From a virus, in the IMG/VR virus record IMGVR_UViG_3300025030_000060, positions 1 through 64,000 of that record: a stretch of 64,000 nucleotides of DNA; one strand, written 5' to 3'. The notes below the pieces were generated by a model, which had not been told where the DNA came from, made no database searches, and saw only the letters and a program-made list of their open reading frames with translations. Position 1 is the stretch's first letter; the number at the start of each line of letters is the position of its first letter. Of this stretch, positions 32,392 through 53,259 are shown one piece after another. The translations under genes and the position numbers were made by a program.

Positions 32392-32577
32392 TCAATCCGT
32401 GGCAATCATTGCGCGGGCCTGCTCGTTTTTCTGTCGGCAGTTGCGGCACTCAACGGGGTTACGCTTGGTACACTCCTGCACGTTGTTACCGCAGGCGCAG
32501 AGGCCCATGGCATAGGAGCGGTATGCCCCTTCGGCTTGGTATCCCTCAAGTAATTTGATACGCTCATGTGGTTCCAT
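32392..32577 (-). CDS. Small Cys-rich hypothetical protein
   Basis: ORF track. Confidence 0.5.
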   Translation of the reverse strand: MEPHERIKLLEGYQAEGAYRSYAMGLCACGNNVQECTKRNPVECRNCRQKNEQARAMIATD

Positions 32578-32588
32578 GCCGCCCGCCC

Positions 32589-32852
32589 CTATTTGGCTTC
32601 CGATCCTGGCCCTTTCACGGATTCATAGACTTTGCCGAGTGAAGCGACACCCGCAGCCCAAACCGCCCCCAGCGGCCCCCGGTTGTCAACCTTGACCTTG
32701 ATGTCGCCCTGCGTGAAATCAACCACGCCGTCGCTCTGGCAGCGCACCCTGATTATCCGGCCATCGGGGAGGGTGACAGATGATTCCCTGGAGCCAAGGC
32801 CGACGCAGCCGGGGAGCATTAGAACCACAAGAATGAGGCTAAAATGCTTCAT
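32589..32852 (-). CDS. Lipoprotein (possible spanin component)
   Basis: Lipobox LPGC; in the lysis cluster. Confidence 0.65.
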   Translation of the reverse strand: MKHFSLILVVLMLPGCVGLGSRESSVTLPDGRIIRVRCQSDGVVDFTQGDIKVKVDNRGPLGAVWAAGVASLGKVYESVKGPGSEAK

Positions 32853-33153
32853 CTATCAACTCGTTCTGCAACTCTTCGCAGCGATCCGACCAATACCTAT
32901 GGTTTTTCTTGGCAACATCATACATAAAGTCATCCAAGGTCATGCCATCTTTTATATTTGATAGAACATTGCGATGAGCACACGCCACTTTTGCACTGTT
33001 TTCAAGTATCTTGATCCGCAGTTCCCGCTTAAACTCCGGCTTGCTTTGATGGCTGAGCCCCCACATCCCACCCGTGCAGTCGCAGCAGTCGTGAGCAAGG
33101 GCCGGTGTGACGATAAGGGTCGCTATGATGGCTAGTATGGCGGGGTATTTCAT
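32839..33153 (-). CDS. Secreted Cys-containing protein
   Basis: Signal peptide ending ALA. Confidence 0.6.
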   Translation of the reverse strand: MKYPAILAIIATLIVTPALAHDCCDCTGGMWGLSHQSKPEFKRELRIKILENSAKVACAHRNVLSNIKDGMTLDDFMYDVAKKNHRYWSDRCEELQNELIDEAF

Positions 33154-33839
33154 CGTTTCGACCTCGCCGCGTCGTGCCCGTGAACGGTCATAATCCCGTT
33201 TTCTGCCCACCTGAAGGCCCATGTCCGCATGTATTTTGCTTTTACTGGGTTGGCCCGCACTACCTTCTCGTAAAGCCCATAGCCCACCCCGAAAAAATGG
33301 ACTATGGAAAGCTTTTGGTTTACCTCGTTGATCCGCTGCACTGTCGCCGGACCAACCTTGCCATCTACGACGATAGGGGGCTTGGGCCATGCCGCACGGT
33401 TTGCCGCCTCCTGTACTACCTTGGCAGCGGCGAAAGGTCCCGCGTTGACGGCCAGTTCAAAGAATAGGTTTGCGGCGAGTTGGTTCTTCCATTCGCTGCA
33501 CCGGCCAGCATCCCAGTACCACTGGTAGACCGGCACCGTGTCTTCGACGGTGATGTCCTTCATCTGCTTCCCGCGCTTGGCGAAGTAGTCAGCATGCTCT
33601 TTCCCGGCAAGCCCGTACTTAGTCCCAACGTTGACACCGTTGTACCAGTTGCCCGAATCGTCAGGGTCACTCTGGAACCCCCCCTCGTGCCCGAATGTGT
33701 TGGTGAGCGCGGGGGCGATAGCTGCCGCATGGCTTTGCGTGAATGCCACAGGAACCGGCACAGACATAGAGGGCATTCGCGGCGACAATGGAATCGCCAA
33801 GCCTAAAAGCACCCACAGTGCGACAAGAAATCTTTTCAT
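33150..33839 (-). CDS. Endolysin, glycoside hydrolase family 108 with PG-binding domain and N-terminal hydrophobic signal
   Basis: HEGGFQSDPDDSG...TKYG...VDGKVGPAT. Confidence 0.9.
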   Translation of the reverse strand: MKRFLVALWVLLGLAIPLSPRMPSMSVPVPVAFTQSHAAAIAPALTNTFGHEGGFQSDPDDSGNWYNGVNVGTKYGLAGKEHADYFAKRGKQMKDITVEDTVPVYQWYWDAGRCSEWKNQLAANLFFELAVNAGPFAAAKVVQEAANRAAWPKPPIVVDGKVGPATVQRINEVNQKLSIVHFFGVGYGLYEKVVRANPVKAKYMRTWAFRWAENGIMTVHGHDAARSKR

Positions 33840-34037
33840 TTTGATTCTCCTGTTCTGTTGGAGAGAACTGTTGCCCTCTCCAACTCTTGGTCTATGATAT
33901 GGTATCCCGTGACGGCAACAGTCGCCGCCAAGGCCCTTGTTTTGGCCTGCACGTCAGGACTCAGACTTTCATTCTTCAAGCCCTGCTACCTGCACAAAAG
34001 CATGTTTGCAAACCGTGCAGCTCATGGTCTCTCCCCG

Positions 34038-34406
34038 CTACGGCTTCCCCGTCAGGACGTGCCAGAGATACACCCAGTTGATCTTCTCGAATATCCACTT
34101 GCCGAACCATCCCAGTATTGCCAGAGTCATCAAGCCGAGAGCGTTCAGCGCCCATCTGCGTTCTTTCACCATGTCCTTCATGTCCCGGAAGGTCCCAGGC
34201 GGGATGTCCCGGATCGCCGACATCTGGCGTTCTGTCAGGCCAATGGAGCAGCCTTGGTTTGTCACCGCAACCTTTATCATGTTGGAGATGATTACCACAT
34301 CGCTTCTGGTAAGCGCGTGTTTCCGCTTGGTCTGGCCGTCAGTCTCGGGCGGCAGGGAATCAAGGATAATTTGCAGGCTGGCGTCGAGTTCAGGTGTAGT
34401 TGTCAT
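34038..34406 (-). CDS. Membrane protein (holin/antiholin candidate)
   Basis: C-terminal TM; lies between pro and the endolysin, as P1 lydE/lydD do. Confidence 0.55.
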   Translation of the reverse strand: MTTTPELDASLQIILDSLPPETDGQTKRKHALTRSDVVIISNMIKVAVTNQGCSIGLTERQMSAIRDIPPGTFRDMKDMVKERRWALNALGLMTLAILGWFGKWIFEKINWVYLWHVLTGKP

Positions 34407-34430
34407 GGCATCTCCGGTGGACGTAGTTTT

Positions 34431-35447
34431 TTAGATGTAAGACTGACCCTCAAATTCAGGGGCAGCGGCGGCGTCGCCGTATCCCGGTTCCGCCCTGAAA
34501 GAGGGCTTGTTGGCTATCACGGTTTTTTGGTGAATTCCCAAGGGGAGCATGCTTATGTTCACACCCTTTGCTTTCTCGAAAAAGGCCACCACATTTTGGA
34601 ACTGCTCGCCGGTACTCATGTTGAGCATGTCGTGGATGACAGCATCCGGGATAGCAATAATGGACTTCCCCGCTGCTTCGAGAATCGCCGTTCTTGCCAT
34701 CGCCCTTTCTGCCTCTTCGCGCTCGATTCGCGCCGTGGCCGATTCGAGCAAGGCAGTTTTGCCCTCCAGTTCCTCACGGAGGGAATCGCCGAAGATGGCC
34801 GCTTCGATGATCTGCTCCTGAAGCTCGGCATTTTCGAGGATGGCCGAAGCGGTCCAGTGCTTCATCCACTTTTCTACGTCTTTGTCGTCCATGCCAGTTG
34901 CCCTGGCGACGCTTTCGAGGATCATGTCGCTGTTGCCTGCCGACTCAAGGATGTAGCCCCGGTTCGAGGCGAAGCCGGGGTTCATCACGTAGTCCATCCC
35001 GTGGAAGTCGGCGATTTTGGTCGCACCCATCGGGCCGCCGTTCACCCCGCCGCAGGCCCACGAGAAGCCACCGACGCCGGAAGCGTTGAGGGCGGAAACG
35101 ATCTTTCCCGGCGCGGTCTCCAGGATCTGCTGGGAATGGTTCACCTCGCCGTCCTTGCCGACCTCGAACGCCACCGTGATGTTGCTGGGGATGTTCTCAA
35201 CGATCATGCTGGAACCGTCCGGGAGTTTTATGGTGCCGACTTCCGGGATAGCGAGCTTGCCGTGCAGTTCGCGCCGTCCGTGGCCGAAATAGCCCAAGGC
35301 TTCGCGGAGCTTCATGCGCTCGCGGGTCGCGGGGCTGTAGCAGGTTGCGATGGCCGACTCCAGAATGTAGTTCCGGTGATGGCCGGAGTATTTGCGCCCC
35401 TCGTTGAACAGGTTAAAACTGCATTGAACTATTTCGGGTGTTGCCAT
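34431..35447 (-). CDS. pro: Prohead/head-processing protease (P1 Pro-like)
   Basis: GRKYSGHHRNY...GYFGHGRRE...GGFSWA...DYVMNP; follows the portal gene. Confidence 0.85.
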   Translation of the reverse strand: MATPEIVQCSFNLFNEGRKYSGHHRNYILESAIATCYSPATRERMKLREALGYFGHGRRELHGKLAIPEVGTIKLPDGSSMIVENIPSNITVAFEVGKDGEVNHSQQILETAPGKIVSALNASGVGGFSWACGGVNGGPMGATKIADFHGMDYVMNPGFASNRGYILESAGNSDMILESVARATGMDDKDVEKWMKHWTASAILENAELQEQIIEAAIFGDSLREELEGKTALLESATARIEREEAERAMARTAILEAAGKSIIAIPDAVIHDMLNMSTGEQFQNVVAFFEKAKGVNISMLPLGIHQKTVIANKPSFRAEPGYGDAAAAPEFEGQSYI

Positions 35448-35461
35448 GGCTGGCTCTCCTT

Positions 35462-37156
35462 TTAACTGTAAAAGCTGTCGATGTAGCCCTGAATTGATCG
35501 CGCCGACTCCATCAAGGCTTCACCGCCACCACTTTTCTCCTTCTCCTTGGCGGCGGCTTCCTCGGTAGCCTTCTTGGCGGCGGCTTCGGCAAGCTTCTTT
35601 GGGAACATGATCTTGAACTTCGCTTCATCCACTTTCATGATGTCGGTGAACAGGAAGTTCTCGAAGGCGTTTTTGTCGACTCCCAGCCATTCCTGATCCA
35701 TCAGGCCCACGAGCTGCGCCATGCCGGTTGCGAGTTGGACGCGTCCCTCGCGGTTCTCCATCTCTTCGCGCTCCATGGCGGTCGAGACGCTGTTGAACAC
35801 GATGCGGTAGGGCTTCTCGCCGGGGAGGAATGCCTTCTTGAATTTGTAGGCGATATGGATGTCGCAAAGCTGTTCGACGCCCGTCTGTATGGCATGCCGC
35901 AGCATCTGCGCCTTCATGGCAGCCATGACAGAAACACGGAAGAACCCGCCATCGCCAAGCCCCCCGGAAAGGTTCTCGCCAAAACCCAGCAGGGAAGGGT
36001 CGACGCCCAAGGCCCCGCATAGACGGTTGATGTGAAAGGTGATGTCGTTGATCGCTTCGATGTTCGGCGTGCCCTCGATAGTCGAGATGTCCAGCCGCGC
36101 CCGTCCGTCGCCGAAAATGGGGATCAGGTGGTTGATGACGGTCTGGATGAACCCCTTCTTGAGGCTTCTTTTTGCGTTGGCGGTATCCACCCGCTGCATC
36201 TGGCCTGCGACGATGTTCAGATACTGTGCCGCCTTCTGGGGGGAGAGCTTGCCGGTGTTGATGCCGATCATGCGCTCCATCCGGGATGCGTTTTTCCTGG
36301 ACATGTTCAGGGAGAGGATCGCGTTGTTCAGGTCCATCCATGGCCCGTAGGATGTCTCCAACAGGCTCGTCCCGTAATTCTGGGATTCCGTGATGGAGTC
36401 GTCCTCGTAGTTGTCCACGGATAGGTCGAAGATCGAAGCGTCAACGCGGATAGGCTCCAGCAGGGACGGTTTCCACATGGGAATGCGGAACGGCACCATC
36501 TTCCACGGCTCCATAAGCTGAATGCCGCCCGTTTCCGGCTGTTGGTGCGCCGAGACGTAGCCCGCCACGCCCCCGGCCTGCTCGTACATATTGACGAATT
36601 GGGGGTGAGTGTAGTAGTCGGAACGGACCTGCTTGATTCCTACGCCGTCCTCACCGTAGACGCGGGCGAACCAGATGCCGTTGATCCCGGCGTTGTAGGC
36701 CCAGAACTGGCACTGGTCGTTGACTATTTTCTGAATGTTGTTGCGAAGGTCCAGGGTTATCGGGTCGGTTTCATCCCCGATACTCTCGATGGAGATGATC
36801 TCTCCGGTATCGGCCTTGGGGGAAAGCGCATGCGAGATATGCATCTTAATGGCTGAATCAATCGTCGGGTCCGTCGCCATGGTTCGGTAGACGTTGTAGC
36901 GGGCGAGGCGGGCCAAGGGAAGGTCTGTGATCTCCAGTTCGCCATCTTCGCCGGACTCGGAGACCCCGCCAAGTTGAGACCCATCTTCGGCGAAATTCTC
37001 ATAGATTGCGGAACCGGGAGGAAGTGCCAGCCCCCCCAAGTTCCTCGAATCAACCTGTTGGGAACTGGGGAAGAGCTGCTTCCAAAATGGCTTCTTCGAG
37101 TTTTTATCTTCGGATGCGGCCATATACACGGGCTCCATGGTATAGTTTCGCGCCAC
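35462..37156 (-). CDS. prt: Portal protein (P1 Prt-like)
   Basis: RYNVYRTMATDPTIDSA...DPSLLGF...GGLGDGGF; size and adjacency to pro. Confidence 0.8.
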   Translation of the reverse strand: MARNYTMEPVYMAASEDKNSKKPFWKQLFPSSQQVDSRNLGGLALPPGSAIYENFAEDGSQLGGVSESGEDGELEITDLPLARLARYNVYRTMATDPTIDSAIKMHISHALSPKADTGEIISIESIGDETDPITLDLRNNIQKIVNDQCQFWAYNAGINGIWFARVYGEDGVGIKQVRSDYYTHPQFVNMYEQAGGVAGYVSAHQQPETGGIQLMEPWKMVPFRIPMWKPSLLEPIRVDASIFDLSVDNYEDDSITESQNYGTSLLETSYGPWMDLNNAILSLNMSRKNASRMERMIGINTGKLSPQKAAQYLNIVAGQMQRVDTANAKRSLKKGFIQTVINHLIPIFGDGRARLDISTIEGTPNIEAINDITFHINRLCGALGVDPSLLGFGENLSGGLGDGGFFRVSVMAAMKAQMLRHAIQTGVEQLCDIHIAYKFKKAFLPGEKPYRIVFNSVSTAMEREEMENREGRVQLATGMAQLVGLMDQEWLGVDKNAFENFLFTDIMKVDEAKFKIMFPKKLAEAAAKKATEEAAAKEKEKSGGGEALMESARSIQGYIDSFYS

Positions 37157-37238
37157 AGCCTACTTGTACTAGCAGAGTTTAGAAAGGGTACTTTTAGGTA
37201 TTATTGGGTAATGCTGAGGAGTTGCGATGTGTAAAAAT

Positions 37239-37270
37239 AAAAGCGCCCCTTCTTGAGAAAGGACGCTTTT
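37239..37270. terminator. Intrinsic (bidirectional) terminator
   Basis: AAAAGCG...CGCTTTT hairpin. Confidence 0.7.
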
Positions 37271-37394
37271 GTTGTGATCTCGCCGCGCACCCCTTCGTTT
37301 GCAGGCTATTGCGCTAATCACTCTCGCCATTCGGCATTATCCAGTACGGCCCTGACGGCACTATTGCCGCTGCGGCTCCGGGGTATTTGGAGGG

Positions 37395-37424
37395 TATATA
37401 CACCTAAAGTGACATAACTGTCAA
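37395..37424 (-). promoter_or_regulatory. Candidate sigma70 promoter pointing away from the att site
   Basis: TTGACA-18-TATATA; TGACA-N4-TGTCA palindrome over -35. Confidence 0.45.
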
Positions 37425-37446
37425 GTGCGGCAGCATTTGCGTTTTC

Positions 37447-37540
37447 ATTATCCCAACCAAACAGCTACAATCACTGAGCAATCCCGTTGATCGCCCTCGC
37501 GTGTTATGCCGCCGGTTGGCGAGATAATAACTAGTTAAAC
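37447..37540 (+). other. attI-like integron recombination site
   Basis: Core GTTAAAC (37534-40) preceded by AGATAAT and a 5-nt spacer; inverted repeat ATTATC-CCAACC / GGTTGG-CGA-GATAAT; core is complementary to the R'' of the first attC. Confidence 0.6.
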
Positions 37541-37546
37541 CGACCT

Positions 37547-37732
37547 TTATTCGTCTACCTTCGTCGGCTTCAGGGTTTCAGCTATATCCCGGAACCGCTG
37601 TAGTTCGCGCTGTACCGCCACCTTCGCCCTGTGCCCTAATTGGTTGCGTGGGTCGCTCAAGAGGTACGCAAGCTCGTTTGCCTCGTCCTTGAGCAAGACT
37701 ACTGCCTGATCAATTGCTTCCTTTCTGGTCAT
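37547..37732 (-). CDS. Cassette 1, distal gene (hypothetical)
   Basis: ATGA coupling at the conserved junction. Confidence 0.7.
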   Translation of the reverse strand: MTRKEAIDQAVVLLKDEANELAYLLSDPRNQLGHRAKVAVQRELQRFRDIAETLKPTKVDE

Positions 37733-37980
37733 GGCCGCACCGCCTCTGCCGCCTTATAGCCGTCGTTTCGACCCTGCCAGTAGTCGCTGTTTTCGTATTC
37801 TGCGACGAGCAACCGCAGTTCCTCATTTTCAGCCGTCAGCCGCTCCACCTCGTGGCTAAGATATGCAGTCCCGCCAGAGGGAGCATCCAGGTACGACCGC
37901 AGCCGCTCCACCTCGGTAATGATCGCCATGACTGTTGGAAAATCTCTGAATATAATCTTCTGTCTTTGCAAGTCCATCAT
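37729..37980 (-). CDS. Cassette 1, proximal gene (EVERL coiled-coil)
   Basis: GGAGG RBS next to the attC core; ends AEAVRP. Confidence 0.7.
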   Translation of the reverse strand: MMDLQRQKIIFRDFPTVMAIITEVERLRSYLDAPSGGTAYLSHEVERLTAENEELRLLVAEYENSDYWQGRNDGYKAAEAVRP

Positions 37981-37990
37981 CCCTCCCAGG

Positions 37991-38041
37991 GTTTAACCCC
38001 TCGCTCGTCCGCTGGCGCGGCCAGCTCGCAAACCGTTATCC
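37991..38041 (+). repeat. attC-like site 1 (51 bp)
   Basis: GTTTAAC-CCCTC-GCTCGTCC...GGCCAGC-TCGCAAACC-GTTATCC. Confidence 0.75.
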
Positions 38042-38557
38042 CTCGAACTCCGGGTTAAAATTCGGACAGGAAAAATCGCCGTGGGTCTGAACCGATCCTT
38101 TGCCACTACCAAACGTGATGTTTAGCCGGAACATTGGCACGGTGTCTTTCCCAAACTCACCGAAAAGGTCGATCATGCAAGTCCGATACTCGCCTGTCAG
38201 CTCTTTAACGTAGTGCATCCCCTGTGAACCCCAGGCTTTGCACTGCCGGCACTTGCCGGTTGCCTCTTCGAGGCCCTCACCGTTGAGGCAACGGGGGATC
38301 TCCGCGCCGATGGTATCCGGTACCCGCCCGCCGCCCTGATCCTCCTGGAAGCACATCACCCTCTCAACCAGCAGTTCGATACTCTTGATATGCTCCGGGT
38401 TAGCACCCAACTCAATGCATTTGTACTTATACGTTTGAAGGGCGGCAGGGACAGCAGCGTCCTTTGCGCAGAGCAGGAGCGAGTCGACCTCTGTGTACTT
38501 CTTGCCGTTCACCGGGTTAAAGGCATGAATCTGGAATTTGCGGTCAATTACGCTCAT
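38036..38557 (-). CDS. Cassette 2 gene (phage-type hypothetical)
   Basis: LLCAKDAAVPAAL..Y motif; TAA stop lies within the GTTA core. Confidence 0.8.
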   Translation of the reverse strand: MSVIDRKFQIHAFNPVNGKKYTEVDSLLLCAKDAAVPAALQTYKYKCIELGANPEHIKSIELLVERVMCFQEDQGGGRVPDTIGAEIPRCLNGEGLEEATGKCRQCKAWGSQGMHYVKELTGEYRTCMIDLFGEFGKDTVPMFRLNITFGSGKGSVQTHGDFSCPNFNPEFEG

Positions 38558-38583
38558 GAATTTTCTCCGTTTTATAGTGCCAG

Positions 38584-38632
38584 GGATAACCCGGCGCTGG
38601 TCCGCTGCGCGGGCAGCTTGGTTGCGTTAAAC
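38584..38632 (+). repeat. attC-like site 2 (49 bp)
   Basis: GGATAAC-CCGGC-GCTGGTCC...GGGCAGC-TTGGTTGC-GTTAAAC. Confidence 0.8.
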
Positions 38633-38899
38633 CAGAATGATTTCTCTTGCGTTAATGGAACAGTTATCGGATATCGGAGAAGTCCCATACCAGCGCAGGT
38701 ACCACTTACCGTTGACGCCCTTGGCTTTCCACATCTTCCCCTCGTAAACTCCCGATGGTATAGACGACGAATACTCGGCCAGAAAATTAAATGTCTTTTC
38801 GGACATCAGCGCGTGAGTGCCGTCAATCTCGATTGCAGACCGATGCGGTTGATTCCAGTACGCGCCCAGAGGGTCTGTCATTGCAGGTATCTCGCTCAT
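38627..38899 (-). CDS. Cassette 3, distal gene (conserved phage hypothetical)
   Basis: MTDPLGAYWNQP...YSSSIPSGVYEGKMWK; stop in core site. Confidence 0.8.
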   Translation of the reverse strand: MSEIPAMTDPLGAYWNQPHRSAIEIDGTHALMSEKTFNFLAEYSSSIPSGVYEGKMWKAKGVNGKWYLRWYGTSPISDNCSINAREIILV

Positions 38900-39177
38900 A
38901 GCCGCACCGCCTCTGCTTTAGCCATGTCCAGAAGTTCAATGAGCTTTTCGTCAGAGACATCGGCCTTTGCTGCCAAAACTGCAACTACGGCGTGCAGCGC
39001 ATCCCTCTGGACAGTGACCCGCTCCACCTCACCAGAGAGTGAGTTGACCATAGACCGTAACTCCCCGATCTCGCCTTTGAGATCATCACACGCGCCGTGA
39101 GGGCATACCTTCGGAAGCGCTGCCTCAGCCGTTGACCTACCTCTACCTTGATACATGTACCCTTTAGCGTCACCCAT
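38896..39177 (-). CDS. Cassette 3, proximal gene
   Basis: Ends AEAVRL at the conserved junction. Confidence 0.7.
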   Translation of the reverse strand: MGDAKGYMYQGRGRSTAEAALPKVCPHGACDDLKGEIGELRSMVNSLSGEVERVTVQRDALHAVVAVLAAKADVSDEKLIELLDMAKAEAVRL

Positions 39178-39194
39178 CTCTTCATCCCTCCAAA

Positions 39195-39282
39195 GTTTAA
39201 CCAGCAGGTCGAGGCGACCGAGCCGGTGGTAGTGAGCAGGAGTTGGCGAGAGTTCCCGCGCCTCACCTGCGGTCCGTTAAAC
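39195..39282 (+). repeat. attC-like site 3 (88 bp)
   Basis: GTTTAAC-CAGCA-GGT(C)GAGGCG(A)C...GCGCCTCACC-TGCGGTCC-GTTAAAC, with two extrahelical bases at the canonical positions. Confidence 0.9.
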
Positions 39283-39438
39283 CGGCTCCTGGAACCTTGC
39301 TTTTTTTGCAGTCTCTTTGACTACTTCAACGTCCCAAGAGGCACCATCTTCCCCAATTTTACGGATTGCATCCTCTTTCGATTCAGCCTCTATGCAGGCG
39401 GTCTCTTTTATCGTCCTGGTGACTTGATACCAGTTCAT
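39277..39438 (-). CDS. Cassette 4, distal gene (53 aa)
   Basis: MNWYQVTRTIKETACIEAESKEDA; stop in core site. Confidence 0.7.
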   Translation of the reverse strand: MNWYQVTRTIKETACIEAESKEDAIRKIGEDGASWDVEVVKETAKKARFQEPV

Positions 39439-39791
39439 AGCCGCACCGCCTCTGCCTTGCGAGCGTTTTGCATGGTGCTCGCGAAGCAACTGGCTGTCGC
39501 AGCCGTGTTTTCGTAGTGGGTTTGCATGGAGCGCAATGCCCTAGCCAGGGTGCCGTCTTCCGATGTCGAGTGCCACGGCGTTTTCTTGCCGTAGCCGGAG
39601 ATTTTCACTTCGTACTTGGCTTTGCCGTCCTTCTCCCTCCTCTCCACCTGGAGGGTCGAAAGCCTGTTGAATCCACTGCTCTGTATCCCGGTGGCGCGTA
39701 GGTACCCTTCGGGGTTGGACGACTTGTGCACCGTCCAATCGTAGCCGGGCATGATCTTGACCAGTTCTTTTCTGAAATCTGCTGGACTCAT
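39435..39791 (-). CDS. Cassette 4, proximal gene (conserved phage hypothetical)
   Basis: FRKELVKIMPGY.WTVH...ATGIQSSGFNRLSTL; ends AEAVRL. Confidence 0.8.
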   Translation of the reverse strand: MSPADFRKELVKIMPGYDWTVHKSSNPEGYLRATGIQSSGFNRLSTLQVERREKDGKAKYEVKISGYGKKTPWHSTSEDGTLARALRSMQTHYENTAATASCFASTMQNARKAEAVRL

Positions 39792-39806
39792 TGTTTACCT
39801 CCCAGG

Positions 39807-39854
39807 GTTTAACCAATCGCCGCAGCCATCCGGCTGGGCTCAAAAGCGTTAGGC
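39807..39854 (+). repeat. attC-like site 4 (48 bp)
   Basis: GTTTAAC-CAATC-GCC(G)CAGCC-ATCC-GGCTGGGC-TCAAAAGC-GTTAGGC. Confidence 0.85.
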
Positions 39855-40031
39855 CTTTATGTCCTTCACTGTCCCGATAATCTTAATTTTTGAGTGCTCG
39901 CCCCAGCGTGACGTAGCAGTTCCGGTTTCCAACATTTGAGTTCTGATACGAAACGCCTCCCATCGTCTACCAAGACTGAATACGATAAGCAGCACGCCAA
40001 TTACCGCTAAAACAAGTATTGTTGTAATCAA
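39849..40031 (-). CDS. Cassette 5 gene, membrane-anchored (low GC)
   Basis: N-terminal TM; stop in core site. Confidence 0.65.
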   Translation of the reverse strand: MITTILVLAVIGVLLIVFSLGRRWEAFRIRTQMLETGTATSRWGEHSKIKIIGTVKDIKA

Positions 40032-40059
40032 CTTTCCCTCCTCCTAGCCCACTGAAGGG

Positions 40060-40126
40060 CAATAACCAGTGCTCGGACGCCGACCGGCAAACAACGTCGG
40101 ACGGGTCAAGCACATGGCCGTTAACC
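40060..40126 (+). repeat. attC-like site 5 (67 bp, degenerate)
   Basis: CAATAAC-CA-GTGCT..GAC.CCG...CGGGTCAAGCAC-ATGGCC-GTTAACC. Confidence 0.7.
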
Positions 40127-40366
40127 CGATTTTGCCGCCCTCTTCAGCGTCTTCGCCACCTTCGAGGTGATCGCTTCGCGCATGAATTCGGTTTCACCCT
40201 CTCCGGTGATCTCTCGCGCCTTGCTAATTCCCTCATACTCGCCGCAGGTAAAGCGTATCCCTTTGCTGACCTTCAGCGGGTTCTCTTTCCTGTAGTCCTT
40301 CTTTCGGCCCGCTCCCGGTTTTGCACCTCCAAGAGGTTTCCCGTTGGCATTAAATCCTTTTGGCAT
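40121..40366 (-). CDS. Ribbon-helix-helix-like DNA-binding protein
   Basis: GGAKPGAGRK followed by KGIRFT..E...EFMREAI; stop in the GTTA core. Confidence 0.7.
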   Translation of the reverse strand: MPKGFNANGKPLGGAKPGAGRKKDYRKENPLKVSKGIRFTCGEYEGISKAREITGEGETEFMREAITSKVAKTLKRAAKSG

Positions 40367-40555
40367 CGCTGTCTCTCCTATGTATTGGGCTCATGGCCTT
40401 CGAAGATATCTGTCAACATTAAGCATTCCCAGCTCCGCATGTCGCGCAAGAAAAACCCGCGCTGCCGTGAGCCTGCGCCCACTCGCCGACATGAATAACC
40501 CTTTTGCACTGATTGCACGTCTTAGGGTCGGTGATCTTAACCACCACGACACGGC

Positions 40556-42633: not shown

Positions 42634-42700
42634 GTCTGTTACCTCCCTGGCGCTGGCCGCCACCCGCGTTGCGCCATCCAGGCGCTATGTCATGGCCCTA

Positions 42701-42740
42701 AATATACACTCTTTGGATTATGTGTCAAACAAATAATGCA
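42701..42740 (-). promoter_or_regulatory. Sigma70 promoter with operator (copy 2)
   Basis: TGCATTATTTGTTTGACACATAA; TTGACA-16-TATATT. Confidence 0.8.
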
Positions 42741-42743
42741 CGC

Positions 42744-42775
42744 AAAAAAGGGGGCACGCTTTCACGCTCCCCCTT
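42744..42775 (-). terminator. Terminator after the ulx-like gene
   Basis: AAGGGGG...CCCCCTT hairpin plus T-run on the minus strand. Confidence 0.65.
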
Positions 42776-42797
42776 CACTCCAGCTATTACCGCTCTT

Positions 42798-43202
42798 TTA
42801 TGGCTTCTTGACTGCCGCCCTCTGCTCCATGTCCTCGTCGTTGGAGAAGAACTTGATCGGGTCTTCGTCCGTATCAAGGACGTGCTGCGCCTCGTGCATG
42901 ATCCCCCGCCCTACCTGCGCGTCCTGATAGGCGAAGGCCGCCAGCAGGTCAAGGGTCTCGTCGCCATAGGTCATGGTCTCGGTCCACTCGTCTTCAATGG
43001 TCTGTCCAAAGGCAGCCTCATCACGTTTCAGGAATGCCGCCTTCACCAGCCACCACCACGGGCCAAAACTACGATAGCGCAGCGGGTCCTTGAGAAGAAC
43101 ACGCTTGACCACTGCGAGGAATCCTTCAGCCCACATGTCTCGGGCTTGGCCCGATTCGGCCAGCATGGCGTTCAATTCTTCGGCTTTCGGTTTATAGATC
43201 AT
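42798..43202 (-). CDS. ulx: Ulx-like protein (DarB incorporation factor)
   Basis: RVLLKDPLRYRSFGPWWWLVK resembles P1 Ulx as recalled; immediately downstream of darB as in P1. Confidence 0.7.
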   Translation of the reverse strand: MIYKPKAEELNAMLAESGQARDMWAEGFLAVVKRVLLKDPLRYRSFGPWWWLVKAAFLKRDEAAFGQTIEDEWTETMTYGDETLDLLAAFAYQDAQVGRGIMHEAQHVLDTDEDPIKFFSNDEDMEQRAAVKKP

Positions 43203-43223
43203 ATCTGCATCCCCCTTGTCGCA

Positions 43224-43260
43224 AATTTATCATTTTTTGTTTATCTGTCAAACAGATTAT
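43224..43260 (-). promoter_or_regulatory. Sigma70 promoter with operator (copy 3)
   Basis: ATAATCTGTTTGACAGATAA; TTGACA-16-TAAATT. Confidence 0.75.
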
Positions 43261-46200
43261 TACGCCATCAGTTTGTAGACCTCGGCAAGGTCGGTGGAAA
43301 TCGGAACATACCACCACGCCCCGTTGAAGTCGCCGCCCGTCTCGGAGAAGAACTGCGCGGTCCATCGGGTTTTCATCATTGGGCTCACTCTTCTCAGTAC
43401 CCCGTTGAATCCGTTCTTGTCCTGGAAGAACCAGCTCGTGAAGGGGGCATGGCTCTTTGCCGGACGCCCCTTATAGCCGGGGATGACCACGTTGGTGTTG
43501 TTGGTCTTGACGGTGATCCCCAAGGCGAGGAAAGCGGCTTTCACCTGTTCAGGGACTTCTTTGAAGTTGGGGTCGTTCCTGATGGCCTCCAGTGCTGCAC
43601 GTTCAGCCTCAGCCTTGGCCTGCGCCTCCTTGGCCCGTATATCCTCCTTGAGCCGGTTCAGGTACTGGTCGGCGATACGGGTAATCTCGCTCGTGTTATC
43701 GCCAAGGGCCTGTGCTGCCGTCTTAATCTCCCCGGCTGCCAAGTCCACGCTTCGCCCAACGACTACCCCGCCAAGGCTTACCTGCTTTTCCATAGCAGCC
43801 TTCCATGCCGTGGCGCATGCCGTCAATATCTCTACTTCAGTCGCCTTCCTGCCGTACTCGCTGGCTATAGCGTCGTAGCCGCTCCCGAATACCAGCCGCA
43901 TGACACTGTTGGCATCGTAAGCGCGGCCCGCCCGCTTCAGGCTTAGGTATGCCTCGCATACTTCTTTTTTCCACGTCTCGTTGTCCACATCGGGGTAATT
44001 CACAGTCAAGCCCGTCTGGGGCTTGCCGAACATCACCCCCTGCGCCCCTCTCAGCACGAAACCGTCGTAGCTGTAAAAACGGATTTTGTCGTAATGCTCG
44101 GTGAAGGTTTCCCTGTCGAGGTCGCCCCGGAGCAGGTCGGCATAGCGCCACTCCTGGCTGAGAAGTTTCTGGAGAGCCATTTCCTTTTCGGAGTAGGAGA
44201 CCTTGACCGGAGAGCGGTCGGCAATGAAGTCCTGCACGTCGTACCACTCATTGTCCGACTGTTTGGGTATAGAATTCCAGTTGAGCTGGCCCATCAAGGC
44301 GTCGGCCTTGAACCCCCTCGAAGCGGAGTTCACTTCGATGACCTTGATGACAATCGTACCGGAGTAGCTGTCCTTAAACTCATACATGTCGCCCACGGTG
44401 AGCACCACACCCTTGGGAGTCACCACACAGTTGCCGGGGTTGTCGATCAGCTTCTCATCAAAGGGAAGTTCCCCTTTCTGTGCCCTTACCCTCAGTTCAA
44501 GGGTGATCTTGTTGATGCGGGCCTGCACTTCGGCCTTTTTGTTGTTGTAGCGCGTGTCGAGGCTGTCCAGCTTCCATTGGGTCCTCTCCAGCGCGTCCTG
44601 TTTCTTCTGAATGGACTTGGAGATGTTTTTGCGCTCTTCGCTCCCCTCTTCCGTCCTCAAGCCCCGGTAGCGCAGATTCTCGATCTGCCTGTTCATGTCG
44701 GAGATGTCTTCGGCAAGATTGGTGCGCTCGGCCTCTTTTTCCTGCTCCAGTCTCGGCAGCACGGAAGCATTGGACGCCAGCACCTGGAGCTGGTTCACGA
44801 GTCGGGCCTTGGCCTGCGCCTTGGCCTTTTCCGCCTTCTTGGCTTCGGCTTCCATGTACTTCCGCTTGGCCTCTTCCGGGTTATCCTCGAACATGAACCG
44901 GATTTCGTCGGCGCTTGCAGCATTGGCGTTGGCTGCGGTCGCTGAGTCGGAGCGGAAGATGTCACCGATCCATCCCGCCTTCTTGCTTATCAGGTGCAGG
45001 CGGTAGGCGTCGAAGGAACCCTTGCCTTGATAGTAGTAAATCTTGATATTGTCGGCCTCGTTGCCTTGCCGGACTCCGCGCCCGTTGCGCTGCTGGATGC
45101 TGGAAGGGGTCCACGGGAAGGTCAGGTGATGGATTGCGCGGGTCCCCTTCTGTAGGTTGACGCCCACTTCGGCCTTCTGGTTGCAGATGACCATCGAGTA
45201 TTCCCCGGAGTTGTAGCGGTCGCTGATCCGCTGAAGCTCGGAACCCTTCGCCTCGTCGGCGTTGATGATGCCGATCTTGCCCCGGAGCATCGGCAGGTAG
45301 TGGGTAAGGATGCGCGCCACCTTTTGATGTTGGGCCTTTTCATCGCTGAAAATGATCTGCTTGCCGCCCAGTTCGTGGATCTTCTGCACCCTGTCCACCA
45401 TCAGTGCGTACTTCGGAGTCAGCGGGTGCCCCACGGTGCCCACGTCGAGTTTCACGTCCCGGAGCTTCTTGGCGTCCATCAGGAACGGCTCGAAGGCGTC
45501 GGCAAGGCGCACGATGAAGGCATCCCCCTTCATGCTGGTCTCCAGCGAATCCAAGAGGCGGTAAGTACGGTTTACCGGTTTCTGCGGTTCGCCCATTTCG
45601 GCCCGTTCAAGGTCATACTCCGGGTCGCCAACGCGGGGAGTAACCCGGACGGTGACTTCAGGCGGTATGATCTTCAAAAGCTGCGTTACCTTCCCCTGGT
45701 CCCCCTTTGCAAAGTGAAATGTCATTCTCCCGTGGAAGATGTCCGGGTCCATGGAAACCTGCTCCATGTCGCGGATGATGGAAAAGACGGGGCGGGGCTT
45801 GCCGCTGAATGTCGAACTGTCATCCTTGGTCGCGGCCTTGGCCTCTTCCCTCAGTTCGTCGTAGATATCCTGCTGCTCGTCGGTAAGGATGGCTTCCTCA
45901 TGGAATTCCTCACTGGGAGGAAGGTCGAGATTCACGTCCTTTGCCGTGCGAAGCAGGCAGTATTTGTGGAAGATGTTGCGGAGCCCGTCGAGGTTCTGGA
46001 AGCCAACAAGCCCTTCCGTCGCCTTGGTCTCGTTGGCGATGGTCATCTTGTCCACGATGTCCTTCTGTCCGAAAACCCGGATGAAGTCGTCGGGGGTGAA
46101 GACGCCGAACCGCTCGAATTCCTCCAGCGGCATGACGTAGGCCAGCATGTTGAAGATTTCCACCGGGGAGTTGGTGACGGGCGTCGCCGTGAGCCCGTAA

Positions 46201-49200
46201 GAGCCCCGGTCGTTGTTGTTTGCCCGGATGTGCCCCATTTTCATCTGCATGTCGAGCCCGCGCTGTGACGCCGGGGCGGTAGAGACGTAGGCAAGGCGGC
46301 TGGCCTCTTCGCCCGCCTCGAAGCTGTTCTTGTAGGAGTGGAATTCGTCTGTGATTACGTCGGTGAAACCCATGTCCTCAAAGTACGGCAGTTCCCCTTT
46401 TTTGGCCCCGGTGTCGGCAAATTTCCCCTCGGCGCGCTCTACCTGCTTGACCTCGTTGTAGTTCAGGGACTTCTCGTCGCCTACCTCGTCGTCCTTCCCC
46501 TCGGAGTTGGCTTTGATGGCCTGCTTAGAGAGCAGGCCGCGCTGGCTCCATTTGTCGATGAACCCCTGCTTCGTGTCAGGCCGGAGCGGGATGCTCTTGA
46601 ACTTCTCGTAGGTCATCACCACGAGTTTCACGTTGCTCTGCGGAATCTGCCACATGTCATCGTATACTTCCGTGGCGTCAAACTCCCCGGATGCAATCTT
46701 GTCCTGCCACATGGCCTCTTTGGTGTACTTGTTGATTTTCTGGTTCCCCTCCTCGTCAAGAACCGGCTCCTGAAGAATTGCCCCTTCCTTGGCGCGGTCA
46801 AAGCGCATCCCCACGAACAGGGCGTCGTCCATGCCCTCGTAGTAGTTCCGTGCCTCGTGGTACCAGTTGGAAAAGACCGCCTTGGGGACCACGATACAGG
46901 TCTTCTTGCTGCGCCCCATCTGGAGGTTGTACTTCACCAAAGCGAGCGTTTGCAAGGTTTTACCAAGCCCTACGTCGTCGGCGAGGATGCCGCGCCCTTC
47001 CTCGGAAAAACGCCGGATGGCCGCGTTCTGGTAGCCGTGCAGCACGATTTTCTTACTGACCCCCTGAAGCCCCAAGTCGGTCATCTCGTACTCCGGGGGA
47101 AGGAAAGCGTTGAACTTCATGTTGTACTGTTCCGCCAGTTCGTCAATGTTGGGCTGCTGCTGCATCCACATATTGAAGGTTTCGCGGAAGTTTTTGATGT
47201 TGTCGTAATACTGTTTTTTTAGGTCGCCGTCGTCGTCGCCCTTACCACCCCGGATGGCATTGCCGTTCATGTAGTTCTCGAACTGGAGGTCGAAGCCTGC
47301 GGGTTTCTTGCCCCCCAGAATGCGGAAGGAGCCGAAGGGATTCTCCGGGTCCTCCGTCCACTCCTTCGCGGTACGCATCTTGCCGGAGTAGGGATCTTCT
47401 TTTTGAACTTCCTGGTCGGAACCATAGGTGACGTTGGGGTAGCCGTTCTCCTTCAGGAAGTCCAGCACGTACTGCTTCGAGTACCACTTGTGGTTGAAGT
47501 CGAACATGATATCGGCAGGGTTCGTTCGCTTGCGCTTCCCGTCGATGATCCCGATCATCTGCATGTACTTCTGCTTGATCCGCTCGTCGGTCTCGTCGGC
47601 CATGGCGGCGTAGAGGGCCTGAAGTTTGGGGTAGATGTCGCCGGAGCAGTAGCGGGACATCGGGTAGATGATGCCGTCCGGGGAGATGGCTACGTTATCA
47701 AAGGCGGCGAGGTCGCCCAGTGTCGCCACCGGCATGCCCCCGGTGTAAAGCTTCTGCACGTCGTCAAGTTCGATGGTCTGAATGCCTTCCCGGATGAACA
47801 GGTGTTCCACGAGTGCCTGCACGTTGGTGGAATCGTATTGAAGATGCCGCCCCGATTCTTCCAGCGTCCCGTTCAGGAGGTCGGAGAAGTTCCCCTTTGC
47901 GTCGAGCGCATTGGAGAAAAGCCCGAACATCTTGGAAGACTCCCCGGTGAGCATGATGCCCCGGTTGTTCTTCGGGTGCCCGAAGCGGTCAATCTCGTTT
48001 GCCACAAGGTCCTGGAGTGCAAGCCGTTCGCTGTCATCCGCGTTGCCGTCGTTGAACCGATCCTGGTAGCGGGCAATCATGCCACCGATGATGGAGCCCC
48101 TGTAGAGCTGTTCCGCTAGTTCTTCCTTGGGCTGGCTCATGGCGAACTCAATAGCCGCACTGGCAAGGGCCGGTAGAAGGTCGGGATAGGTCTTGAAAAT
48201 GGCGAAAAGCTGGTAGACGGTGAAGGAAAGGCACCCCTTGGGAGAGCCAAGGCGGGCCTTCAGCTCTTCGATGCTGGATGCGCCGTACTTGGCTGGGTCA
48301 ATCGCTTCTTTGGCATCCACGGAGGCGACACGGACCCATGCGCCATGCTGCATCTCACACTCGATGCCGTTTATCATCTTGCGGTCGCCGTCCACGTAAT
48401 TGCGCGTAACAGGTTCCGCCACGGAGAGCGCGGCCCAGTCGATCCGGGAGACGAACTTTGAGGCCAGCTTCGCCTTCAGGCCCGCGTCGTCAACGTCGCC
48501 GTCCACGGCTTCCCGGCTGAACCTGTCGCCTGCAATCTTCGGGACCCACTTGCCCATGATGAAGGGCCGCCCCTCGCCCAGCCAGTAGCGCCCCGCTATG
48601 AACTCGTCAAAGATGACGTTGGTGCTTATCAGGGTCTCGAAGGTGAGGTCGTTCACGACGTCCAGAAGGCTTTGCGGGTGCTTGCGAAAGACAACCACGT
48701 CAACGACGGTATCGGTGCCCTGCGCTGCGAAGGTTTTGGAGGGGAGCTTGTGAGCGCCAAGGAACTCGGCCTTGCGGGAAACGGAGTTGCGCCACTTGGC
48801 CCAGTCGGTCGAGCCCTTGGCCCCCACGATGTCGGTCGGCACGATCAGGACGGCGAGCCCCCCAGGCTTGATCTTGTCCAGAATCCGGGAGATGAAGTAC
48901 CGCTGAATCTTCCCCTCGTTCTTGTAGGGCGGGTCGTCGAACTTGTAGGCCCCACGGGCGTCGCCGAAGGGCACGTTGGTGCAGCAGCCGTCGAAGGAGT
49001 TGTCCGGGGTGTCGGAGCAGAACTTCTCGAAGCTCTTGTTGGTGATGGAGTCGCCCGCGTTGAGAAGCTGCGCCACCTTCGAGGCGGTCGGGTCGAGGTC
49101 GCAGCCGGTGATGACGATGCCCCCCGGTTTTGTCGCCGAAAACATGCCGTGGCCGGTGCTGGGGTCCAGGATGTTGCCATTGGCTAGGCCGTTGGCAACA

Positions 49201-49577: not shown

Positions 49578-49671
49578 GGATGCTCCTTGAAGGGGAGTTA
49601 AAAAAACATTCGCGGCGGCATTTGACATATAATGCCGCCGCGAAGTCCATGCTTATTACTGTTTGCTCAGG

Positions 49672-52600: not shown

Positions 52601-53259
52601 TTTGACAGATACTTGTTCGCCTTGGGTCCTGACAACTTCCAGAAGTTCCATACTATGTTGGTGCCGTCTTTCGGACCTATCTCTACTATCGTCAGATAGT
52701 CTTTCGCAGCATCCCGATATATAAAAAGAACGCTTTTCTCTCTATGCTGTGTAAGAAAACTCGTGCCTACGTTGGGAAGAATCTCAGTCGGGTGCGTTAC
52801 GGCCAGTCTCAGGTATTTTTCGTCGTCCTTAGTGAGCTGATTGCCATGTCGATTGCGGATATAAACGATGGTACTGCCATCTATCGCTATCACGCTCTCT
52901 TCAGTGTCAAACCCTAGCGCCCTGACTTCCTGCAAGGCTTTACCTTGCAAGCGTCCCAATACGCTCGGCTTGAGACGCCACTCAGCATCAGCCGATTCCG
53001 TAATAAACCCATCTTCGGCCATGGCTGCGTAAAGCTCATCGCGCCATACACCGCCGTGTTGTACCGCACTTTCCATAACCGCCCCGATCCCCATGGATTT
53101 TTTGAAGACGCCCGTGACGTACTTCCAGAAGCCTTCCCCATCCGACTCTTTGAGGCCGTTCTCCCCGGCTATCACCTTCGCCTGTTTCCAGCGTTTATCC
53201 GCTTCGGCAAGGTCGATGCCAGAATCATCCGCTATGGATTTTACAAGAGCTGCGGGCAT
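49672..53259 (-). CDS. Polyvalent virion protein: small N-terminal domain, PBECR-like nuclease domain, inorganic pyrophosphatase domain and others
   Basis: PTQAQLEAGNYRHGH...IENPKGSKRSG...YG...DGDHVDCYIG...DEAKVYLG (InPase); YIRNRHG...LFIY...VEI...NFWK (BECR-like). Confidence 0.8.
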   Translation of the reverse strand: MPAALVKSIADDSGIDLAEADKRWKQAKVIAGENGLKESDGEGFWKYVTGVFKKSMGIGAVMESAVQHGGVWRDELYAAMAEDGFITESADAEWRLKPSVLGRLQGKALQEVRALGFDTEESVIAIDGSTIVYIRNRHGNQLTKDDEKYLRLAVTHPTEILPNVGTSFLTQHREKSVLFIYRDAAKDYLTIVEIGPKDGTNIVWNFWKLSGPKANKYLSKFRQEKARILAHGGATVNIPHVPPTDESGGKSEGLSESRKQEAGSGPTVSKDDKPVKPILESATAEEVHAAAHEAATSHLNDLPHPTQAQLEAGNYRHGHITMHGLRISIENPKGSKRSGIDPDGTPWEVTMAATYGFFKGTLAKDGDHVDCYIGDHPESELVFIVDQVDAKTGRYDEAKVYLGTLSQKEARDLYIAGFSDGKGAKRLGAMTAMHMPDFKEWLSAGDTTKPLSDVILEAAFTESDLREWAQRSPLAWKARILDAVSFDDIQAAFAQKWPGFIDPPSTSKIIETFRNEEDGTEARVAKVEKGYSVTLKDLDSGEVVPVANIYPDLETAIMKAKEAAGVINRLTNNQDGFKVVASTDKEGAMKSEVEVSRQNVTVAEFFRAIKAACEKKGLAFDLDRETFENPSRPSDDTYSVTNGVKHARYGKGEPTRESDGSDAPAKAETVRIQPYDYQCYIHNLDGSVFNEICEFSFDDEKRGHGYYYQVSRDADVKETEPTPATTDPDATYKEWEQSLNRKGAPTMQASRLIDAMLRSGIKRDEFKVSTERGKDGSFGDAIVKGTMSATVAEHTEALLRNGLNVFWYVPQGRDSMTAMVAAGKEWHSAEAHLDWAGEAGTLTVYDVVKFDARESGGTTTFAPDQMEEARALAKSIQSMQPAPAIPKNPKTGPQRVAVLRSIAAGIPGMQDYLARMDAVTTKREMENLDNDKFELIPSLRGSKEQIGDLDLYWTVADLRDQKEREINKRLKEEAQTAKLEKEQEKTVKKEQEDATLKRHKERPELKKVLDLISADFRTEIVQSITTRFTVMVERYFTDGDFNLLRPGRSGNQWENQTYARVSEELAPLMVPTRKLNPNWQNVMAKLASDSADFYIEQFENKMAWKLGDVLERKGGGDVALFGNVRDHAIRMTFPDKSGFQVRTQQVISTSVNGKVFARYPTTFHDVVLASGERMPVPSAAKMQKEFGITEDKSGE

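Follow-up and report, generated by a model that had tools for sequence, protein, structure and literature searches.

Accessory-gene modules of a 96-kb phage are separated by hairpins with the build of integron attC sites

The window analyzed here comprises 64,000 nucleotides of a phage genome contig (positions 1 to 64,000 of IMG/VR record IMGVR_UViG_3300025030_000060), which has a full length of 96.5 kb and is 84% complete. In this phage, four to five small accessory-gene modules are separated by hairpins with the build of integron attC sites (Table 1). The G residues of the GTT cores that delimit the modules are at positions 37534, 38035, 38626, 39276, 39848 and 40120. An earlier reading made without database searches (the sequence-only reading) had given hairpin coordinates and five unit lengths, and these proved exact on recomputation. 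A promoter-like site (42728-42701) and a terminator (37270-37239) bracket the array, which occupies the 3' end of a minus-strand operon. This placement supports the earlier claim of an operon driven from 42.7 kb and ending in the array.

All ORFs of the array are on the minus strand, as had been claimed, and read toward a conserved stretch that we call the platform. The claim that five of them use the TTA of the GTT core as their stop was likewise borne out: the ORFs ending at 38036, 38627, 39277, 39849 and 40121 have their TAA stop inside the GTTA core. The ribosome binding sites, which had been placed just inside R'', are in fact just outside it, between R'' and the start codon. The last of the five ORFs, of 81 aa, is shorter than the 114-aa homologue of a relative (L001) and thus truncated; homology to this relative ends at 40124.

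Table 1. Features of the array and its surroundings. Positions refer to the window; CM, covariance model; own-complement match, identity of the unit's start with the reverse complement of its own R''.
Feature	Position	Strand	Remarks
Terminator-like hairpin, strong	37239..37270	-	14-bp stem and T run; downstream of platform
Platform, ~108 nt	37428..37534	+	ends at G of first GTT; attI-like by position
Cassette 1 (501 bp)	37535..38035	+	own-complement match 8 nt; includes own attC
Cassette 1 ORFs, overlapping	37729-37980 (83 aa), 37547-37732 (61 aa)	-	
attC-like site 1 (51 nt)	37991..38041	+	CM R1 55.2 bits, E 1.9e-11
Cassette 2 (591 bp)	38036..38626	+	own-complement match 9 nt, rare sequence type
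Cassette 2 ORF	38036-38557 (173 aa)	-	N-terminal domain family ~80% viral
attC-like site 2 (49 nt)	38584..38632	+	CM R1 47.9 bits; L-box with one extra 5'-arm base
Cassette 3 (650 bp)	38627..39276	+	own-complement match 7 nt
Cassette 3 ORFs	38896-39177 (93 aa), 38627-38899 (90 aa)	-	
attC-like site 3 (88 nt, long type)	39195..39282	+	CM 20.4 bits
Cassette 4 (572 bp)	39277..39848	+	own-complement match 8 nt
Cassette 4 ORFs	39435-39791 (118 aa), 39277-39438 (53 aa)	-	
attC-like site 4 (48 nt)	39807..39854	+	CM R1 48.7 bits; single 5'-arm bulge, position 16
Unit 5 (272 bp)	39849..40126	+	ends in atypical hairpin 40060-40126
Unit 5 ORF	39849-40031 (60 aa)	-	hydrophobic N-terminus
81-aa ORF	40121..40366	-	stop codon within last GTTA
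Promoter-like site	42701..42728	-	heads minus-strand operon running through array; 11/12 consensus matches (consensus scan only)

The cargo had been described as phage-like, which is supported by the viral domain families and by a PHROG match: the 90-aa ORF of cassette 3 (38627-38899) belongs to phrog_24427 (E 4e-27). The cargo families are mostly viral, and neither Pfam, PHROGs nor Atlas gave a function for them.

AAC at the 5' end and GTT at the 3' end are present in all five sites of the window and in all 20 aligned sites, and GTTA is invariant in the site alignment (A1). A covariance model (R1) was built from 17 sites of the phage site family, so that its scores describe the sites on which it was trained and do not constitute an independent test. 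In the 96.5-kb contig the model matched only the sites at 37991, 38584 and 39807 (E ~1e-9 to 1e-11), all on the plus strand, and in a smaller search it also matched the site at 39195 on the same strand. The hairpin at 40060-40126 has no match to the model, folds differently and carries bulges on both arms. Therefore, of the five attC-like sites originally described, we retain those at 37991, 38584, 39195 and 39807 as good sites and regard the one at 40060 as an atypical, doubtful hairpin.

Unguided folding of the 17 sites with RNAalifold gave an L-box of 3 bp, a bulge and another 3 bp, with compensatory changes in 5 of the 6 pairs. In the alignment of 20 sites, pairing of the L-box reaches 98%, sliding the partners against each other abolishes the pairing, and the covariation score is 0.389 versus 0.14 in shuffles, none of which (0/500) scored as high. 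The bulge at position 16, which the four good sites of the window share, is on the AAC-bearing arm. Unconstrained folding predicted it in most sites, and its top-strand base is C in 11 of the 17 sites of the model. A second, separate bulge is confined to site 3, where a stem of 6 bp separates the position-16 bulge from another at 23-24, all on the 5' arm; the claim that this site has both extrahelical bases thus holds. In the short sites the terminal loop starts at the place of the second bulge. The published attC rule (bottom-strand G16, 6-bp stem, T23/24; PMC5027507), expressed for the top strand, agrees with the bulge positions found here (16, and 23-24 in site 3).

Other dimensions fit less closely. 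The short sites (44-54 nt) are below the published range of attC lengths, 57-141 bp (PMC5027507), while site 3 is within it. The central spacer measures 4-5 nt on the 5' arm and, in the short sites, 8-9 nt on the 3' arm, versus an expected 5-6 nt. About half of the R boxes fit RYYYAAC/GTTRRRY, for example those of the GTTTAAC/GTTAAAC and GCCTAAC/GTTAGGC types, and the remaining ones have T or C at expected-purine positions. The site 3 hairpin has a homologue of 77% identity in another contig (L008).

The unit ends carry a further signature. The sequence-only reading had noted that units 1-4 start with the reverse complement of their own R'', which is correct over the lengths given in Table 1; unit 5 fails this comparison, as only the 4-nt core matches. 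Across seven arrays, 16 of 18 units begin with the reverse complement of their own R'' (at least 7 nt), while the two ends of one and the same hairpin match in merely 5 of 19 cases. Permutation gave a mean of 6.2 and a maximum of 14 own-complement units in 100,000 shuffles, so that none reached 16. Five kinds of rare end types occur, each paired with its own partner, and roughly half of the sites lack pairing at R-box positions 2-3. The hairpins are thus chimeric. A chance origin is refuted by the permutation test and by the confinement of R1 matches to the array and to one strand, and target-site duplication by a small palindromic element by the fact that the flanks of the chimeric hairpins are not direct repeats. 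The core of the site 1 hairpin is identical at 46 of 47 positions to a site in a Geobacter Mu-like prophage, with unrelated cassettes on either side of the two cores, which would not be predicted if hairpins simply moved together with the cassette on their left.

The own-complement rule is strand-symmetric, which is why a reading with the minus strand as the top strand, and hence with genes in sense, was weighed first. This reading was rejected, because the bulge is on the 5' arm of the plus strand, conservation to the left of the array does not depend on which cassette comes first, and hairpin subtypes track the left flank. The same three observations bear out the original assignment of the plus strand as the attC top strand. 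All ORFs are therefore in antisense relative to genes of canonical cassettes. Of 20 sites, 17 have a G-rich bottom strand, and in 15 this strand forms the more stable fold. The polarity is fixed: all arrays found have the platform on their R'' side.

The platform contains an invariant 18-mer (37436-37453) and an imperfect inverted repeat (37504-37531). In an alignment of 8 contexts (A3), mean column identity is 75% and the boundary AGTTA is invariant, with divergence immediately beyond. Platform and site family occur together in at least 8 contexts, namely unrelated phage contigs and two prophages (Mu-like and lambda-like) of a Geobacter metagenome-assembled genome (MAG). From these shared sites we infer that the host of the phage is Geobacter-like. 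The platform may act as attI; it had no match in the attI region of the Geobacter MAG (integron locus L139).

We consider it probable that the locus, set within a phage operon, is a true array of attC-type cassettes (a CALIN), with cassettes exchanged at G|TT by IntI acting in trans. Four cassettes, and possibly a degraded fifth, would stand beside a fixed platform whose last base provides the G of G|TT, each cassette consisting of TT and the following sequence, one or two bottom-strand genes and its own short attC. Cassettes would be inserted or exchanged at G|TT by single-strand, structure-specific recombination. The reaction would be of the integron integrase type, with the enzyme supplied in trans, most likely by a Geobacter-like bacterial host. 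Because the genes are encoded by the attC bottom strand, they are read in the direction of the platform. Their expression would depend on transcription continuing from the phage promoter upstream; an attC hairpin and a strong ribosome binding site precede each ORF, which often stops at the crossover-point TAA. More tentatively, it is possible that the phages of a Geobacter-like host group draw on a common cassette pool, located on an integrase-less platform of reverse polarity that serves this purpose, where unrelated phages would exchange cassettes with IntI borrowed from the host, and with a 21-nt joint at which genes are re-paired within cassettes.

The sequence-only reading had found no tyrosine recombinase in the 64 kb, and this holds for the whole 96.5-kb contig, where searches for PF00589, TIGR02249, Y1 transposase (PF01797) and serine recombinase were all negative. 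The missing Y1/HUH transposase also speaks against an IS200/IS605 or REP/RAYT hairpin element. No recombinase was linked to the array at any of the arrays found: the tyrosine recombinases on three other array contigs are generic Xer-like phage integrases; they are 11-14 kb away from the arrays, and their scores fall well short of the cut-off for integron integrases. The search for intI, which was negative in the phage contig, was positive in the Geobacter MAG that hosts two prophage arrays, on a separate contig (C120, 32484-33419; 345 bits versus a cut-off of 265). Co-occurrence of same-site prophages and intI in this MAG is the sole link between the arrays and an IntI, and makes this IntI a candidate recombinase. 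The attCs adjacent to this IntI served as a positive control and have extra bases on the top-strand 5' arm, one of them at 15-16 and 23; they are of another sequence type that the phage-site model did not match.

Alternatively, the modules could be moved site-specifically at the hairpins by a host or phage recombinase other than IntI, one that acts on single strands in their folded form; the resemblance to attC would then reflect convergence or a very remote relationship. In favour of such an enzyme, the site family was seen in phages and prophages only, the host integron lacking it; it is accompanied by a conserved platform of its own, which does not resemble the attI region of the host; all arrays have a gene polarity opposite to that of integron cassettes; and the sites are shorter than known attCs. 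However, the contig offers no tyrosine, serine or Y1 candidate, no conserved gene accompanies the platform across six contexts, and the AAC/GTT ends, 5-nt spacer, bulge at 16 and 6-bp stem are exactly the geometry that IntI reads. We regard this alternative as unlikely.

It is less likely still that the hairpins are RNA or transcription signals (for processing, mRNA stabilization or translation control) and that the modules are swapped by homologous recombination at short linkers. Every hairpin is just upstream of a ribosome binding site on the mRNA strand, a 17-nt stretch spanning R'' and the ribosome binding site is identical in several cassettes and phages, and a second conserved linker of 21 nt joins the two genes within cassettes, with mosaics breaking there, which would suit this explanation. 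Linker exchange leaves unexplained both the inverted 7-10-nt unit ends, each matching its own unit, and the chimeric hairpins, and likewise the invariant AAC/GTT and the one-sided bulge. In addition, none of the five hairpins had a T run in the terminator scan, and Rfam and tRNA scans gave no matches.

Comparison of relatives bears on whether cassettes are individually mobile. One relative (L002) has flanks 94-98% identical and the same platform, followed by two other cassettes, and divergence begins directly after the G of G|TT. Variation exactly at G|TT, which had been proposed as a check, was therefore found at the left boundary; at the right boundary homology breaks 3-4 nt away from G|TT, within the truncated gene. 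The order of cassettes differs as well: in L005 a homologue of cassette 2 comes first beside the platform, and in L007 this place is taken by a homologue of cassette 4, in which gene 1 has 62% identity and gene 2 is different. Sites and platform are thus shared across unrelated phages and prophages, while cassette sets differ between close relatives. This variation in content and order among same-platform arrays, and the mostly viral cargo, speak against the idea that array and flank were captured once from a bacterial integron and spread as a block of cassettes no longer individually mobile. A fossil of this kind would account for the missing integrase, the decayed sites with deleted hairpins in L005 and L007, and the atypical fifth site here. 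Uniform reversed polarity is rare in bacterial arrays and also counts against it, so that we give it little credence. Instead, cassette exchange by IntI in trans may be continuing.

Phage morons and hyperplastic regions with conserved boundaries resemble the array in that small genes of unknown function are swapped among phages, between conserved modules; unlike the array, morons have their own promoter and terminator and lack AAC/GTT hairpins with own-complement ends. Sedentary chromosomal integrons (e.g. Vibrio VCR) share family-specific attCs, chimeric R boxes, G|TT crossover and core-overlapping stops with the array, which differs by the lack of an adjacent intI and of a platform promoter into sense genes, by its polarity reversed throughout, by 2-5 cassettes per array and by its viral carrier. 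The locus is not a complete integron, as there is neither an intI by the attI-like platform nor an attI-end promoter into sense cassettes. The contig has no intI, and its only sites, four in number, fall within 1.9 kb; the locus therefore classifies as a CALIN, provided that the sites are attC.

Integrase-less phage attC clusters are already known: Qi et al. (2023) described CALINs in temperate and virulent phages, and IntI1 recombined phage attCs (PMC9892861). Like the array here, those CALINs have at least 2 attC-type sites and no neighbouring intI, and their cassettes have functions that are unknown or useful to a phage. Compared to them, our array has much shorter sites, its genes are all encoded by the attC bottom strand, it borders on a conserved ~108-nt platform found again in unrelated phages, and its site family occurs both in lytic-type contigs and, within one host group, in Mu-like and lambda-like prophages. 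New features are the reversed polarity, the shared platform and the marked shortness of the sites, and neither uniform reversed polarity nor an integrase-less conserved platform is known from described integrons and CALINs. IntI-mediated insertion of cassettes outside att sites, at attG sites (10.1101/2022.09.11.507474), would explain integron-free cassette entry and the phage gene truncated at the far array end; in the outline given by that source, a conserved platform and uniform polarity are not predicted.

If host integrases act here, integron recombination would be a routine means of trading small genes, possibly anti-defence genes, among unrelated phages that share a host, and thus more than a tool of bacterial adaptation that occasionally leaks into phages. 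The sites, of only 44-51 nt, are concrete substrates for asking how little an attC needs, and the platform/site system could serve as a host-linkage marker for uncultured phages. A metagenome scan with the platform pattern returned only the L007 contig, which was already known, and searching bacterial genomes for a 16-nt pattern yielded a single true locus (L033) among what were mostly chance matches.

The ends of the units carry a clear signature. In 16 of 18 units from seven arrays, the opening 7 or more nucleotides are reverse-complementary to R'' of that unit (R'' and R' being the outer boxes of an attC-like site that carry AAC and GTT), and the two ends of a single hairpin match over at least 7 nt in just 5 of 19 hairpins. 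When ends were shuffled among units in 100,000 trials, the mean count was 6.2 and the maximum 14. Each of the rarer end types pairs with its own partner, over up to 10 nt. The cassette-array observation stands, and it goes far beyond what chance would give. The five TAAC...GTTA hairpins of the sequence-only reading, its unit lengths of 501, 591, 650, 572 and 272 bp, and the matching unit ends were all found as described. As an array of five units, however, the proposal did not hold in full, as site 5 and unit 5 both failed the tests.

A terminator scan found no intrinsic-terminator features in any of the array hairpins of the window, and an Rfam search of the array returned no matches. In an alignment of 17 short sites, unguided RNAalifold predicted a stem interrupted by a single unpaired base, with 3 bp on either side of it; in five of the six pairs both partners are substituted and pairing is kept. 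Across 20 sites fitted to the model, the stem was 98% paired, and its covariation exceeded that of all 500 shuffles and of every slid control. About half of the sites leave the distal R-box positions unpaired, which is what chimeric sites predict. No described attC is as short as the short sites, whose 3' spacer is long.

The own-complement rule alone leaves the strand unspecified; it is specified by the bulge position and the fixed left flank. Unconstrained folds of most sites show a single 5'-arm bulge at site position 16, with a second at 23-24, past a 6-bp stem, in site 3. By the published rule for attC sites, the top strand has its extrahelical bases on the AAC arm, and on the bottom strand they are G16 and T23/24, spaced by 6 bp (PMC5027507). 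As a positive control, the attCs beside the true intI of a Geobacter MAG have their extra bases on the top-strand 5' arm, in one case at 15-16 and 23, and their genes are sense-oriented. In addition, 17 of 20 sites have a G-rich bottom strand, a skew for which genome background accounts in part, and in 15 of 20 that strand forms the more stable fold. Together, these observations identify the plus strand as the top strand, so the earlier assignment of polarity is right.

The five minus-strand ORFs reported to end with a TAA inside the GTTA core do so. In 13 of 21 sites, the TAA within R' ends a bottom-strand ORF of 40 codons or more, and in 17 of 21 a ribosome binding site and start codon directly follow R'', indicating that the reversed polarity is systematic across arrays. 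Domain and PHROG searches assigned no function to the cargo. One cargo protein belongs to a phage family without known function, and the N-terminal domain of a 173-aa protein falls in clusters that are about 80% viral. In otherwise unrelated two-gene cassettes of the window, L002, L007, L140 and L141, gene 1 (C-terminus ...AEAVR-P/L, then stop) and gene 2 (overlapping ATGA) meet at a joint of about 21 nt that is nearly identical from one cassette to the next. Gene 1 of window cassette 4 recurs, at 62% amino acid identity, in the first cassette of L007, another array-bearing contig, but the second genes of the two are unrelated. This places a mosaic breakpoint at the joint, so homologous recombination at short linkers also shapes the arrays.

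Two contigs from other samples, L001 and L002, belong to one close relative of this phage. L002 matches window 33149-37266 at 94%, with portals 98% identical, and L001 matches 42697-49155 and 40124-40543 at 89-90%. What lies between the conserved flanks differs: the relative carries two other cassettes, built in the same way, and about 2 kb of non-cassette genes. Variation exactly at the G|TT crossover point was borne out on the left, where homology spans a conserved non-coding stretch and stops at the G. On the right it was not: homology breaks at 40124, missing the last G|TT by 3-4 nt, inside an 81-aa ORF whose homologue in the relative has 114 aa.

A search with a 16-nt motif spanning the ribosome binding site and R'' identified five further contigs with such sites, mostly from unrelated phages. 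Scanning bacterial genomes yielded a single true locus, which is a Mu-like prophage of the Geobacter MAG. Its hairpin core is identical to that of window site 1 at 46 of 47 positions, with unrelated cassettes on either side. A second array of this MAG occupies the terminase-portal interval of a lambda-like prophage. Homologues of window cassettes 4 and 2 are the platform-proximal cassettes of L007 and L005, respectively.

The platform, a conserved flank of about 108 nt left of the first cassette, has a mean column identity of 75% over eight different contexts. Within it are an invariant 18-mer and an imperfect inverted repeat, and it ends in an invariant AGTTA beyond which every sequence diverges. 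Its position relative to the sites is on the R'' side in all arrays found, and no conserved gene adjoins it in six contexts. The attI region of the Geobacter MAG integron does not resemble it; by position, the platform may be called attI-like.

The source contig, an IMG/VR virus contig whose first 64 kb make up the window, is linear, 96.5 kb long and estimated to be 84% complete, and the genes of the window lie on the minus strand almost throughout. Its phage markers include the T4-like portal, the GH108 lysin, the 2122-aa SNF2 protein and the InPase/PBECR protein. The array forms the end of a minus-strand operon, between the 81-aa ORF and the portal gene.

Locations of the array, its surroundings and related loci (window positions unless a contig is named)
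Feature	Location	Strand	Remark
T4-like portal	35462-37156		phage marker
GH108 lysin	window		phage marker
SNF2/helicase protein, 2122 aa	within 43260-53259	minus	just upstream of array operon
1195-aa protein, PBECR nuclease-like and inorganic pyrophosphatase (InPase) domains	within 43260-53259	minus	just upstream of array operon
Promoter-like site	42728-42701	minus	operon limit
Strong terminator	37270-37239	minus	operon limit
Platform	37428-37534
Promoter-like site, ORF-poor stretch and terminator	37239-37430	minus	platform-to-portal interval
53-aa ORF	37169-37330		overlaps terminator, probably not real
Two-gene joints	37722-37742, 38893-38913, 39437-39457
Array, this phage	37534-40126		directly upstream of portal gene
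Array, lambda-like prophage	L141 4691-7768 (G008:C82)		directly upstream of portal gene
Geobacter MAG integron	L139 (G008:C120:20000-39999)		intI 32484-33419, cassettes from about 34200
Tandem-repeat gene	L001:10087-10617, L002:1-285		breaks both contigs
tRNA-like element	L002:1187-1322	plus	inside cassette
Decayed sites	L005 about 2255-2305, L007 12113-12160	reverse

The reported lack of a tyrosine recombinase extends to the entire contig, in which searches for integron integrase, serine recombinase and Y1 transposase were likewise negative, leaving no candidate enzyme on the phage. In the Geobacter MAG with the two prophage arrays, a separate contig encodes an integron integrase whose score exceeds the curated cut-off. 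Recombination of the arrays by a host integron integrase supplied in trans would thus be the most economical reading, and a plausible one. Phage attCs have proved to be substrates of IntI1 (PMC9892861). The MAG integron is ordinary, with intI followed by AT-rich, sense-oriented cassettes and longer attCs, whose sequence type is unlike that of the phage-type sites. The latter occur in one of 87 genomes of the MAG's family, plus one weak match, and within the MAG only in prophages.

The most fitting class for the array is the phage-borne CALIN (a cluster of attC sites lacking an integron integrase), a kind described in 2023. As far as we checked, the uniform reversed gene polarity, the very short attCs, and the conserved integrase-less platform common to unrelated phages and to prophages of one host group are new.

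Several minor features were noted. The Mu-like prophage has its array in the early region, following the transposition genes. The platform-to-portal interval of the window holds a TTGACA-18-TATATA promoter-like site, about 150 nt in which no ORF is convincing, and a terminator with a 14-bp stem, and may yield a small transcript. The tandem-repeat gene of the close relative contains many copies of a 27-nt, nine-codon unit, and its stop codon sits in R' of that array's last attC. The tRNA-like element of about 135 nt has an acceptor stem, a T arm and a CCA-like end; neither ARAGORN nor Rfam made a call. The decayed sites of L005 and L007 retain R'' and the first spacer bases, have lost the hairpin, and are followed directly by the next cassette start, which is still complementary to its own R'' except at one base.
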